Source: a virus (lineage: Duplodnaviria; Caudoviricetes). From it: a stretch of 64,000 nucleotides of DNA. Both the position numbers and the translations under genes were made by a program. The DNA is taken from positions 1 through 64,000 of the IMG/VR virus record IMGVR_UViG_3300029305_002203. One strand, written 5' to 3'. Under the pieces are notes generated by a model that ran no database searches, was not told where the DNA came from, and saw only the letters and a program-made list of their open reading frames with translations. Of the stretch, positions 3,980 to 30,602 are shown piece by piece (the stretch's first letter is position 1; every line of letters begins with the position of its first letter).

Positions 3980-4300
3980 ATGAAATGGAATGTGTATATC
4001 TATAATTTTAATCAAAATAGAATAGAGAAATACAACGTATTTAAACACGGTTCTTTTATGGAATATCTAAAGAAAGCTTGCGAAGAATGTAAAAGTAAAG
4101 ACATGCTCGCTGAAAAAATTAAGTCTGAATTGAGATATTATTTTTGGGCAAAAAGCCAATGGGAAATTATTATTTCTCCGTGGGTCGGCAAGTCAGAACC
4201 ATGCGATATAAAAATAGACGTGTTCGACCAGGTAATGATGAATTTTGATATTTTTGTGGATTATATTTGGAAAAATAGAAAGGAACTTTTAGAATTATGA
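3980..4300 (+). CDS. conserved hypothetical phage protein
   Basis: ORF with GAGGTG SD. Confidence 0.75.
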   Translation: MKWNVYIYNFNQNRIEKYNVFKHGSFMEYLKKACEECKSKDMLAEKIKSELRYYFWAKSQWEIIISPWVGKSEPCDIKIDVFDQVMMNFDIFVDYIWKNRKELLEL

Positions 4301-4798: not shown

Positions 4799-5707
4799 AT
4801 GGGTAAGTTATATTTTTTGGTCGGACTCCCCGGTTCCGGCAAGAGTACATATGCAGAAAAATTGAAAGAAGAAGGAGTTATTATTCATTCTTCGGATGCG
4901 ATTAGAGAAGAGTTCGGTGATGTTAACGACCAGAGTAAGAATACAGATGTATTTACAATTCTTCATAGAAGAATTAAGGACGATTTAAGAGACGGTAAGA
5001 ATGTCTGCTATGATGCAACAAATCTCTCACGCAAGAGACGAGTGGCTTTTCTTCGAGAACTAAAGAACATTCCGTGTGAAAAAATTTGTATATTAATTGC
5101 TACACCGTTTGAGAGATGTTTATTACAGAACTTAGAAAGAGAACGTACTGTTCCTAGAGATGTTTTAGACAGAATGTATAGAAACTTTCAGATACCTTGT
5201 AAACAAGAAGGGTTTGATGAAGTTATTATTCATTATCTGAAAGAAGAATTTAAAGAGTATTATGGAGATGTTGCAGACCATGTGAATGGTTTGTGTGATT
5301 TTGAGCAAAATAATTCTCATCATGCACTTACTCTTGGCGAACATATGAAAGTGGCTGGCCGTTATATATCTTCAATCGTAAAAGAAGAGAACGACCTTGT
5401 TCATGCTACATATACACACGACATTGGTAAAGTTGATACTAAGGCTTTTATGAATGCTAAAGGAGAACCTATTGAAGAAGCACATTTCTACAATCATCAG
5501 AATGTTGGCTGCTATAAAAGTTTATTCTTTGGATACCCTTCATATATTAATAAAGAACATGTTGCATTATTAATTGAATTACATATGAATCCTTGGTTAG
5601 TTTGGGAACAGTCTGAGAAAGCAAAACAAAAAGAATTAGAGCTATTTGGTGAAGATATTGTCGCAGAAGTAGAGTTATTACATCAGGCAGATTTATATGC
5701 TCATTAA
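4799..5707 (+). CDS. polynucleotide kinase (AAA_33) / HD phosphoesterase, Pnkp-like RNA end-healing enzyme
   Basis: P-loop GLPGSGKS, DATNL motif, C-terminal HH..TLGEH...HDIGK HD domain. Confidence 0.8.
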   Translation: MGKLYFLVGLPGSGKSTYAEKLKEEGVIIHSSDAIREEFGDVNDQSKNTDVFTILHRRIKDDLRDGKNVCYDATNLSRKRRVAFLRELKNIPCEKICILIATPFERCLLQNLERERTVPRDVLDRMYRNFQIPCKQEGFDEVIIHYLKEEFKEYYGDVADHVNGLCDFEQNNSHHALTLGEHMKVAGRYISSIVKEENDLVHATYTHDIGKVDTKAFMNAKGEPIEEAHFYNHQNVGCYKSLFFGYPSYINKEHVALLIELHMNPWLVWEQSEKAKQKELELFGEDIVAEVELLHQADLYAH

Positions 5708-27504: not shown

Positions 27505-27563
27505 TATATTTTTTTTGACCAAAATTAAACTAGTCAAAATAATAAAAATAAAGGAGAAAAAGA

Positions 27564-29858
27564 ATGAATAAACCCAAATTAACAATGATTGAATTTTTTT
27601 CTGGTATTGGAGCACAGAAGAGAGGTATTGATAACACAGAACTTTATGATTTAGATGTAGTGGCTACTAGCGATGTTGATAAAGAAGTAATGGTTGAATA
27701 TGCAGCTATTCATCATGGATTAACAAATGAGATGGTTGAGAACTATGAAAATTATCCAAGTCGTGAAGAAATGGTAGAAGAATTAAAAACCCGTAATATT
27801 GGTATGGATTTTGACAAGGGTAAAATGTTTGATTGGAACAAGCTTATAAAGAAGAAAACAAAAGATTTAGAGAAGTATTGGCTTGCTATGACATTACAGA
27901 ATAATCTTGGAGATATTAGCAAAATTGAACAAGCACCTACTGCTGATTGTTGGTTTTATTCGAGTCCTTGTCAGTGTTTTTCAGTAGCTGGTAAGCAAGA
28001 TGGTATTGATGCTACTTGTAATGCATGTGGTCAGAAATATAATCCGATGTTATTAGATGCAGACAAGAGATATATTTGTCCCCATTGTGGTTCTGATGAT
28101 GTAAAAGGTACTAGATCAGGATTATTACTTGAAATAGAAAGATTGCTCATCAAGGCTATTGAAACAAATACTGCACCTAAATATCTTTGTTTAGAGAATG
28201 TAAAGAACCTTGTAGGTAAACAGTTTAAAACTGACTTTGATGCTTGGATTAAGAGATTGGAGTATTTAGGGTACAATACATATTGGCAAGTTTTAAATGC
28301 AAAAGAATGTGGAGTTCCACAAAACAGAGAGCGTGTTTTTGCATTCTCAATCCGTAAAGACATCGACACCGACAAATTCACATTTCCACTCCCTTTTGAC
28401 ACCGGTATTCGTTTAAAAGATATTCTTGAAAAAAATGTAGATGAAAAGTATTACATAAACACAGAAAGAGCTTCAAATCTTATTCAGCAGTTAGTAGATA
28501 AAGGCCAGTTAAAAGGTCAGAGAGAATGTTGCGATTCAACTATCAATGACCCTAATGTAAGAGATGTTAGTAATGCAATTATTGCAAGATATGATGCTGG
28601 AATTAGTAATTATAGACAAACAGGATTAGCAGTAGCAGAACCTCAACCTATTCTTGTTAAGAATCAGGGAACAGAATACATAAAAAATCTTGATGAATCG
28701 GTAACACTTAAAGCAAGAGATTGGAAAGGTTGGGATAATTATGGTTCAACTGCTATTGTAGAATCTGAAACTTTAGACTCTTCTAAGAGATTAGGTGGGA
28801 TGTTTGATGATAACACTAAACATCAAGCAGGCTCAGTATGGGATACAAACGGTTTAGCACCTACATTAGATACAATGCAAGGTGGATTGAGACAACCATG
28901 TGTTGTTGACACAGAACCTAAAGAAAGATTCTTCAAACAAGCATTAGAAACATTTAATAATAATGATTGTGAAGAAGGTGATACCATTGATGCTTTCAAT
29001 CAAAGAGTAAACAAGAGTGGTTATAGCCCTACCTTAACAACAAGACCAGAAGGATTTAAAACTGCAATTTTGCCGGTTGTTAAAGAAAATGTATCCGAAA
29101 CTAGTCAAAATAAAAAGTCTACTTGGAAAGACATTAACTCTCATTACAAAATCAGTAGCAAAGGTGTAGTTGTAGATGTTATTAATAAATGCCAAGTAAA
29201 AGAAATAGATGGCAAGGTTGAATTAGAAGTCAAAGGTAAGATGGCTAAATTCCCTATTGATGCTTTAATGAAGAAGTATTTCGCAGAAGAAGTAGATACT
29301 ACAAAGCCTATTTGTGTAGGTAATACAACTCCATCTGGTAAATCACAGTGCAATGCAGTTTATTCAACTGAAGGCGTTTCTCAAACTTTGTGTGCTGGTA
29401 CTCATGGATATGCAACAGGTTCTATATTAGAAGAACAAAAAGAAGTAATAGGTATTAAACAAGCAACTAAGAAGGGATATATTGAGTGCGAACTTCCTGG
29501 GTGTGCAGATTTAAGTTTTCCTTCTTCTACAACAAGAAGAGGAAGAGTACAAGATAATGGTCAAACTTCTCCTACAATTACTGCTACAGAAACAGGAGTG
29601 CATTACATAGAATCTGTTTATCGCATAAGAAAGTTGACCGTTGGTGAGTGTTTCGTGCTTATGGGATTTGAACTATTAGATTGGGATAAATGCGTAGCAG
29701 TGGGTATTTCGAATAGTGCAGGATATAAGGCGGCTGGCAACTCAATTGTCACCAATTGTATCTCCTTGCTCTTTGAACATTTATATAAAGCACAATATGA
29801 TGAATCATATATTTGTACTGATGAAAAAATGCAAAATTTTCAGAAACCAGAGGCATAA
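27564..29858 (+). CDS. multi-TRD (multispecific) DNA cytosine-C5 methyltransferase
   Basis: FFSGIG (I), SPCQ (IV), ENV (VI), QNRERVF (VIII), ~6 tandem TRD-like modules, RKLT..EC..LMGF (IX), AGNSI (X). Confidence 0.9.
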   Translation: MNKPKLTMIEFFSGIGAQKRGIDNTELYDLDVVATSDVDKEVMVEYAAIHHGLTNEMVENYENYPSREEMVEELKTRNIGMDFDKGKMFDWNKLIKKKTKDLEKYWLAMTLQNNLGDISKIEQAPTADCWFYSSPCQCFSVAGKQDGIDATCNACGQKYNPMLLDADKRYICPHCGSDDVKGTRSGLLLEIERLLIKAIETNTAPKYLCLENVKNLVGKQFKTDFDAWIKRLEYLGYNTYWQVLNAKECGVPQNRERVFAFSIRKDIDTDKFTFPLPFDTGIRLKDILEKNVDEKYYINTERASNLIQQLVDKGQLKGQRECCDSTINDPNVRDVSNAIIARYDAGISNYRQTGLAVAEPQPILVKNQGTEYIKNLDESVTLKARDWKGWDNYGSTAIVESETLDSSKRLGGMFDDNTKHQAGSVWDTNGLAPTLDTMQGGLRQPCVVDTEPKERFFKQALETFNNNDCEEGDTIDAFNQRVNKSGYSPTLTTRPEGFKTAILPVVKENVSETSQNKKSTWKDINSHYKISSKGVVVDVINKCQVKEIDGKVELEVKGKMAKFPIDALMKKYFAEEVDTTKPICVGNTTPSGKSQCNAVYSTEGVSQTLCAGTHGYATGSILEEQKEVIGIKQATKKGYIECELPGCADLSFPSSTTRRGRVQDNGQTSPTITATETGVHYIESVYRIRKLTVGECFVLMGFELLDWDKCVAVGISNSAGYKAAGNSIVTNCISLLFEHLYKAQYDESYICTDEKMQNFQKPEA

Positions 29859-29868
29859 CTGTCTCTGG
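29834..29868 (+). other. predicted -1 programmed ribosomal frameshift signal
   Basis: In-frame A AAT TTT heptamer (29834-29840), 6-nt spacer, 9-bp stem CCAGAGGCA/TGTCTCTGG. Confidence 0.7.
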
Positions 29869-30040
29869 CGAAGAAACATTTAAACCACAGCTACTTGCTG
29901 GTTTCGGTGAAATAAACTTTGGCAAACAATATAGACAAGGTAATAGAGTTTATTCGAGCGACCATATAGCCATGGCACTCAATGCTCAACCTGTCGGAAA
30001 TATGGGAGGTTATTCATATTTATATGTCGTTAGAGAATAA
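29840..30040 (+). CDS. -1-frame extension of MTase encoding extra TRD-like module
   Basis: Open -1 frame SETRGITVSGEETFKPQLLAGFGEINFGKQYRQGNRVYSSDHIAMALNAQPVGNMGGYSYLYVVRE*; no own start/SD at its 5' end. Confidence 0.65.
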   Translation, partial: SETRGITVSGEETFKPQLLAGFGEINFGKQYRQGNRVYSSDHIAMALNAQPVGNMGGYSYLYVVRE

Positions 30041-30302
30041 TAAAGAAGTATATATATTAGATGACCTATATGCCAATAGAGATCCAAGACTATACACTGA
30101 ATGCCCCACATTGCGTAGTGAACGATATGGCTTAAAGGTTATAGAAGAATTCCCGGTTTGTTGTGCTATGCGTGGAAGATATAATGAAGACGGAAAGATA
30201 GAGCAGCAATTAGAAGTTAATTCGGCAGATTATTGTAATGCAATTACAACAGTTTTTAAAGATTGTATGATATTGGAGAAATTGGAGAATACAGATGAGT
30301 GA
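30024..30302 (+). CDS. stand-alone protein with two MTase TRD-like modules
   Basis: GGGAGG SD; CPTLRSERYGLKVIE and CCAMRGR...CNAITTVFKDCMILE resemble the PTL/xTL TRD repeats of the MTase. Confidence 0.65.
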   Translation: MSLENNKEVYILDDLYANRDPRLYTECPTLRSERYGLKVIEEFPVCCAMRGRYNEDGKIEQQLEVNSADYCNAITTVFKDCMILEKLENTDE

Positions 30303-30498
30303 TTTAGATTTTACTTATAGTCCATACGTGAATAGTAAATATACGCAATTCTATGAAAAGTATGGATATCTACCTAAATATTTTAATCCTTATAACTGTA
30401 CAGAGTTGGATGGTTATGCTCCAACTCTTACTTCTCAAGGAGATAGTATTACAAAATCAGGAACAGTGTTGATCATAGAAAAAATTGTCGAAAATTAA
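30295..30498 (+). CDS. stand-alone TRD-like module
   Basis: FNPYNCTELDGYAPTLTSQGDSITKSGTVLIIE, cf. AFNQRVNKSGYSPTLTT in the MTase. Confidence 0.65.
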   Translation: MSDLDFTYSPYVNSKYTQFYEKYGYLPKYFNPYNCTELDGYAPTLTSQGDSITKSGTVLIIEKIVEN

Positions 30499-30522
30499 AC
30501 TAATCAAAATAATAAAAACATA

Positions 30523-30551: not shown

Positions 30552-30602
30552 ATAATTAAACTAATCGAAATAATAAAACACAAAGAAACGGAGAGTGATA
30601 TT

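Follow-up and report, generated by a model that had tools for sequence, protein, structure and literature searches.

The window that we analysed is a 64,000-nt stretch drawn from a 95.5-kb IMG/VR virus record, IMGVR_UViG_3300029305_002203; the GC content of the record is 30%. It carries a gene for a C5 cytosine DNA methyltransferase (C5-MTase, or MTase) with an array of target-recognition domains (TRDs) between catalytic motifs VIII and IX. Three-frame translation of the 640 nt downstream of that gene (29859-30498) uncovered three further coding pieces holding four TRD modules, termed A, D, B and E. Module A lies in the -1 frame at the 3' end of the MTase gene, D and B share one short open reading frame (ORF), and E has its own (Table 1). 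What these external modules may do for the enzyme is the subject of this report.

Table 1. Features of the MTase locus, in window coordinates.
Feature	Coordinates	Strand	Remarks
25-nt intergenic motif AATTAAACTARTCAAAATAATAAAA, one copy	27523..27547	+	just 5' of the Shine-Dalgarno (SD) sequence of the MTase gene
C5 cytosine DNA methyltransferase	27564..29858	+	764 aa; PF00145, phrog_116
Motif I	27597-27614	+	
Motif IV	27966-27983	+	
Motif VI	28194-28208	+	
Motif VIII	28320-28340	+	
Internal TRD array	28524..29615	+	between motifs VIII and IX
TRD T1	28524-28640	+	aa 321-359
TRD T2	28647-28763	+	aa 362-400
TRD T3	28764-28910	+	aa 401-449
TRD T4	28911-29078	+	aa 450-505
77-aa insert, not TRD-like	29079-29309	+	between T4 and T5
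TRD T5	29310-29435	+	aa 583-624
TRD T6	29445-29615	+	aa 628-684
Motif IX	29622-29669	+	
Motif X	29736-29750	+	
Predicted -1 frameshift cassette	29834..29868	+	heptamer, spacer and hairpin
Slippery heptamer A_AAT_TTT	29834-29840	+	in the MTase zero frame
Spacer CAGAAA	29841-29846	+	
9-bp stem	29847-29855 / 29860-29868	+	loop holds the MTase stop, 29856-29858
-1-frame extension	29840..30040	+	linker and TRD module A (GFGEINFGKQYRQGNRVY..GGYSYLY); ends at TAA 30038-30040
Mini-ORF D-B	30024..30302	+	92 aa; modules D (CPTLRS) and B (CNAITT); ATG overlaps the end of the A frame
Mini-ORF E	30295..30498	+	67 aa; one TRD module (APTLTS); ATG overlaps the D-B stop (ATGAGTGA)

The MTase matched PF00145 at 156.9 bits (cut-off 22; E-value 1.1e-45), in agreement with a genome-level scan, and matched phrog_116 (DNA methyltransferase) at 1.7e-59. 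Its motifs I, IV (PCQ), VI (ENV), VIII (QxRxR), IX and X (GNS) follow one another in canonical order, at residues 12, 135, 211, 253, 687 and 725, and we predict a complete C5-MTase with motifs I-X. A first-pass annotation of the window had proposed a multispecific enzyme of this class with about six TRDs between motifs VIII and IX. Six were found, carrying the short strings that it had quoted for them. T1 to T6 show no significant similarity among themselves, and homologues of each occur, in other combinations, within catalytic ORFs from other phage loci. The closest relatives, loci L005 (723 aa), L006 (565 aa) and L007 (513 aa), are 66-75% identical to the window MTase. On comparison of their module content, the differences between the four enzymes proved to consist of entire modules cleanly gained or lost: T2 and T3 are present in all four, T6 in three, T1 and T5 in two, and T4 in the window only. 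With several contiguous, non-overlapping TRDs in its VIII-IX region, the MTase has, as far as its sequence can tell, the anatomy of a multispecific phage C5-MTase. The 77-aa insert within the array was seen elsewhere only in L005. A four-cysteine zinc-ribbon insert (28017-28091), between motifs IV and VI, is common to many of these phage MTases.

The external modules have counterparts inside other enzymes. Module A is an internal TRD in L061, L062, L072, L074, L081, L083 and L088, usually the last one before motif IX. The L024 MTase has an internal TRD with 63% identity to module B, and internal counterparts of D occur in L070 and L061. For E the match is to the final TRD ahead of motif IX in P0072 and P0142, and to an internal one in P0073. 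By this homology all four belong to true TRD families. Motifs IX and X, and any catalytic motif, are absent from the A, D-B and E ORFs. The first-pass annotation had already described the D-B and E ORFs as TRD modules free of a catalytic domain, and their homologues bear it out; its external set omitted the frameshift-dependent module A and the status of D-B as a continuation of that extension (see below). Its estimate of about ten specificity modules agrees with the count of six internal modules plus A, D, B and E, among which no family is duplicated.

Searches for named or solved relatives gave little. The mini-ORFs and the L007 extension had no matches in Pfam, PHROGs or PDB sequences, and a PDB profile search with 23 module-A proteins returned chance matches only. 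Module A may resemble the M.HhaI TRD, a likeness that this profile search did not bear out. An AlphaFold2 (AF2) model of E (predicted local distance difference test score, pLDDT, 76.4) had no match in the PDB by Foldseek (best E-value 4.5) or among 48,161 chains by VIA-align. The ESM Atlas search matched only small-protein clusters without names.

Module A directly overlaps the MTase 3' end in the -1 frame (…GFGEINFGKQYRQGNRVYSSDHIAMALNAQPVGNMGGYSYLY…) and has no ATG, GTG or TTG. Our search with module A returned 66 viral loci, making 67 loci with the window. In 28 of the 67, the frame of module A and the 3' end of a C5-MTase gene overlap in the -1 register, and in 27 of these 28 the heptamer A_AAT_TTT stands in the MTase zero frame, 10-28 nt before the stop; the exception, L071, has AAACTTT. 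An in-frame heptamer was also present in L092, L094 and L099. From the point where the -1 frame opens up to module A, ten loci offer no ATG, GTG or TTG, and in several a stop codon lies immediately 5' of the heptamer, with the -1 frame opening exactly at it. The hairpin begins 5-6 nt after the heptamer, has 9-12 bp and encloses the MTase stop. For most loci its minimum free energy falls between -16 and -24 kcal/mol, and for the window the value is -14.2 kcal/mol (z -4.9). RNAalifold, run on 17 distinct sequences, found 10 conserved pairs, seven of them with compensatory changes. Hairpin cells were paired in 95.9% of cases, against 86.6% in shuffles and 42-54% when the partner was slid, and none of 500 shuffles reached any of the observed pairing measures. 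The ratio of nonsynonymous to synonymous substitution rates (dN/dS) of module A was 0.02-0.04 among four close relatives, with synonymous sites near saturation. Because the heptamer, the start-less A frame, the covariation of the hairpin and the low dN/dS come together, we predict a programmed -1 frameshift, which would extend the product from 764 to 825 aa. Transcriptional slippage is an unlikely substitute, since neither the A run nor the T run exceeds 3-4 nt. The cassette matched no Rfam family, and our literature search found no paper describing a frameshift cassette in an MTase gene.

Loci differ in how the next modules are joined to this extension. Modules A, D, B and C form a single -1-frame ORF in L007, A and D share one -1-frame ORF in L005, and in L092 the cassette runs straight into D-B with no A. 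Relative to L007, the window and L006 have in common a 2-nt deletion between A and D. Its effect is that the A frame stops at TAATAA and D-B comes to lie in the +1 frame, headed by an ATG overlapping the end of A. L099 reached the same split arrangement through an independent 1-nt insertion, so that the split arose at least twice independently. On alignment, then, D-B is the continuation of the frameshift extension, split off in the window by the 2-nt deletion. Sequencing error was rejected as its source because the identical deletion occurs in two independently assembled sequences that differ at many synonymous positions nearby. The dN/dS of D-B is 0.04-0.085 (five loci), and it is equally conserved whether fused (L007, L092) or split; selection on D-B as a protein has therefore outlasted its covalent link. 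It is probably translated by re-initiation at ATG 30024 after termination at 30038. A +1 frameshift at the junction of A with D-B was also considered and rejected, there being no codon able to re-pair in the +1 frame. The first-pass annotation had called both mini-genes SD-bearing; this was right for E, which has a canonical GGAG 7 nt 5' of its ATG, but for D-B the GGGAGG lies at a long spacing of 14 nt.

Mini-ORF E has relatives of its own. Its family comprises 39 stand-alone clusters (at 90% identity) of 64-99 aa, 65-88% identical to E and mostly with the same N- and C-termini. In all seven independent genomic contexts that we examined, the E gene lies directly 3' of a PF00145 gene. Its ATG overlaps the MTase stop in L097 (ATGA), and in L095 it begins 13 nt past the MTase stop with a GGAGG SD in front. 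In the window, L092 and L094 it follows D-B, the overlap is conserved, and the GGAG is encoded by the '..ILE' end of the preceding module. Its dN/dS is 0.12-0.18. By these signs E is a genuine, widespread stand-alone gene with an SD and ATG of its own. Two small phages (L100:1171-2393 and L101:2309-3695) have C5-MTases split in the style of M.AquI and then an E-type TRD-only gene; there the first ORF holds motifs I-VIII and TRDs, and the second holds motifs IX-X (66 aa in L101).

Taken together, A, D-B and E have dN/dS values of 0.02-0.18, for comparison with 0.04-0.13 in the MTase core. By these ratios all the external modules are under purifying selection like the core, which argues against pseudogene debris and weakens the idea of a silent reservoir. 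Decay deserves a hearing, since the downstream modules do lie in three pieces in three frames, with a 2-nt deletion between A and D-B, since lesions occur in L094, L049, L032 and L056, and since many MTase loci of these phages are fragmented. They might then be the remnants, untranslated or useless, of a longer frameshift extension or of a second MTase undergoing ordinary pseudogenisation. We consider this quite improbable. Between the window and L006, D-B has 0.61 differences per synonymous site (pS, near saturation) and 0.06 per nonsynonymous site (pN), the same as in the MTase core. No internal stop interrupts 92 + 67 codons of 30% GC DNA, the D-B/E overlap junction and its SD are kept in the window, L092 and L094, and E is a 39-cluster family with fixed ends.

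The first-pass annotation had left two fates for the detached modules, action in trans or storage for recombination. According to the latter, they would be silent cassettes that feed the VIII-IX array and are selected through periodic expression after transfer. The clean whole-module gains and losses among relatives suit such a reservoir, as does the finding of the same families internally in some phages and externally in others. A silent store, however, fits poorly with a conserved and covarying frameshift cassette, or with the conservation of SD and ATG signals and of stop-start overlaps. Nor did we find flanking repeats in or around the array that could guide cassette exchange, or a recombinase gene adjoining the locus. 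We regard the reservoir as very improbable, and of the two branches we favour the one in which the modules would act in trans.

Many phages keep external TRDs of this kind. Among the best 150 representatives matching the L007 extension, 76 were TRD-only, 47 had TRDs followed by motifs IX-X, and 27 were full MTases. There were 26 unique free-standing module-A genes, 19 of them with an ATG and 16 of those also with an SD-like site. Module A is equally constrained in all its settings: the median pN/pS was 0.22 when free-standing, 0.23 when frameshift-dependent and 0.30 when internal, values to be read with pS saturated. Across the 24 cassette-bearing loci, no enzyme shared an A-D family with its own extension. 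In P0034, TRDs B and A are naturally fused in frame beyond the C-terminal end of an MTase. A close MTase relative, L099:1823-3701, has 414 aa with its catalytic motifs intact and no internal TRD: only 11 residues lead from the post-VIII region to motif IX, while the cassette and intact A, D-B and E ORFs are kept. L099 is a natural test case for the function of external TRDs.

On balance we lean towards the interpretation that a single catalytic C5-MTase core draws on about ten different target-recognition modules, which reach it by three routes. Six TRDs would occupy the usual place between motifs VIII and IX. A fraction of ribosomes would slip -1 on A_AAU_UUU, six codons before the stop and aided by the hairpin, and append the linker and TRD A to the C-terminus, giving 825 instead of 764 aa. 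Ribosomes that end this extension, or that bind the SD-like TTGGAG/GGGAGG encoded by the module ends themselves, would start the overlapping D-B and then E, and so yield TRD-only proteins of 92 and 67 aa. A TRD would dock on the core non-covalently, with one TRD of the six-TRD array in the DNA cleft at a time, and the covalent tether would mainly raise its local concentration. Since each TRD of the array must dock non-covalently anyway, C-terminally tethered and free TRDs could dock as well; the methylation specificities so added would protect the phage genome against more host restriction systems. From this docking argument, and from the plasticity of C5-MTases evident in M.AquI, M.EcoHK31I and fragment complementation (PMC3404938), we infer that the external TRDs supply specificity in trans. 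A wider proposal, which we put forward tentatively and rate as somewhat short of probable, is that throughout a large phage group detachable TRD-only proteins of 60-90 aa and frameshift-appended TRDs plug into one core in trans, dosed by -1 frameshifting and translational coupling and giving about ten targets per enzyme. They would then be the first separate specificity subunit for C5-MTases.

The TRD-only proteins could also be translated and useful in another capacity, as small sequence-specific DNA binders or as regulators or competitors of the MTase's own TRDs. Selection of the modules as proteins would be accounted for equally, and they lack the motif IX that all known small C5-MTase subunits carry (PMC3404938). 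Such a role is nevertheless unlikely, as the modules sit strictly 3' of MTase genes (for E, in 7 of 7 contexts), never duplicate a family inside the adjacent enzyme, and are ordinary internal TRDs elsewhere.

Several points weigh against a core served by external TRDs. The A_AAU_UUU heptamer is not among the best-studied bacterial slippery sites, and the start signal of D-B in the window is weak, with its SD 14 nt away. Some relatives have lesions that resemble decay: a 1-nt deletion disrupts module A in L094, one module is interrupted partway in L049, and L032 (G6) and L056 (G4) differ in the length of a poly-G tract within a TRD. Neither the profile searches nor the comparison of the AF2 model of E with the PDB linked the modules to solved MTase TRDs. 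The TRD-less core of L099 is a single cluster, and may be a recent deletion or a dead enzyme. That a TRD would work outside the VIII-IX position, or free and without motif IX, is something we infer, and in the split C5-MTases described so far the small subunit always retains motif IX or IX-X (PMC3404938).

Four known systems bear comparison with the locus. M.SPRI, M.Phi3TI and M.Rho11sI, associated with the Trautner laboratory, are reportedly multispecific C5-MTases of Bacillus phages. The window enzyme is like them in being an orphan phage C5-MTase with one catalytic core and modules gained or lost as units; it differs in having six internal modules together with TRDs placed outside the ORF by frameshift or as separate cistrons. 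In the nearest records of the phage collection, DNA-level similarity to Bacillus phage MTases extends over no more than about 165 nt of the core. Programmed -1 ribosomal frameshifts are known in bacteria and phages from dnaX and from the tail chaperone pair G/GT. The cassette shares with these an X_XXY_YYZ heptamer, a spacer of 5-6 nt, a downstream stem-loop and two products with a common N-terminal body, but the frameshifting gene here would be a DNA methyltransferase and the extension a specificity module. The HsdS subunit of Type I systems offers an analogy only, that of a separate polypeptide supplying target recognition to a methylase core; it belongs to another methylase class and has no sequence relationship to the mini-ORFs, which gave no significant matches to Pfam families.

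To our knowledge, C5-MTase specificity has always been ascribed to a TRD between motifs VIII and IX of the same chain, or to a half-enzyme carrying motif IX. Two-polypeptide C5-MTases (M.AquI, M.EcoHK31I) and artificial fragment complementation are documented (PMC3404938). As in those enzymes, pieces of a C5-MTase would here be translated separately from adjacent or overlapping ORFs, and in the relatives L100 and L101 the split matches that of M.AquI exactly. In the documented cases, however, the small subunit has motif IX or IX-X (PMC3404938), whereas the mini-proteins described here consist of TRD only, with no conserved motif. Because A, D-B and E lack motif IX, we do not file the locus under the M.AquI/M.EcoHK31I type, although it may work similarly.

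If free or C-terminally tethered TRDs do work, the docking of a TRD on the core would be essentially non-covalent, which would account for the ability of multispecific enzymes with many tandem TRDs to work at all. Phages could widen their anti-restriction methylation by adding 200-nt cassettes 3' of the gene while leaving the enzyme untouched, and plug-in TRDs would offer an easy path towards programmable cytosine methylases. The frameshift cassette would in itself be a new and widespread recoding site, at present misannotated by gene callers.

The wider set of loci showed further irregularities of MTase gene structure. In some the MTase locus is broken into 6-11 short overlapping ORFs with one TRD each (L031:2000-4800, L032:2500-4350, L056:2600-4400, L053:2500-4650, L029, L034 and L049). 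Successive ORFs, mostly in the +1 frame, are flanked by one piece carrying motifs IV-VIII and another carrying motifs IX-X(-I). An SD and ATG are present at some junctions; other junctions split a module mid-way or fall at a poly-G tract of variable length. Decay, phase variation and design are all conceivable causes of this fragmentation. Circular permutation was seen in many cassette-bearing MTases, as in L030, L044, L050, L052, L075 and L090 (ORFs ending near locus position 3983) and in L074. They start at motif II ('WELVNFCEFDKYA') and have motif I ('..SSFFSGIGAFExALxRLY..') at the end, after motif X, a circular permutation that is unreported in this form. An intein-like insertion of about 280 aa was noted inside motif IV in L067:1308-3983, and in L054:2-1786 an HNH/AP2-type endonuclease is inserted in frame just 5' of the frameshift cassette; selfish elements seem to insert preferentially in these MTase genes.

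In the window the MTase locus lies inside a block of replication and nucleotide-metabolism genes, which encode Pol III alpha, a RecD-like helicase, an HD protein, the MTase, a cell-wall hydrolase, ThyX, a deoxynucleoside monophosphate kinase and NrdD. The setting is that of an orphan enzyme: the record is viral, the neighbours of the MTase are the helicase, the HD protein, the cell-wall hydrolase and ThyX, and no cognate endonuclease adjoins it. The 25-nt motif AATTAAACTARTCAAAATAATAAAA that precedes the MTase gene also marks the 3' end of the MTase unit, with copies at 30493-30517 and 30554-30578. It has nine copies in the window (starting at 5706, 5761, 6423, 12514, 20679, 20785, 27523, 30493 and 30554), against a chance expectation of 0. 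All nine are on the + strand, intergenic and just 5' of genes, and the motif is probably a phage-specific promoter or regulatory site of the early or middle gene block.

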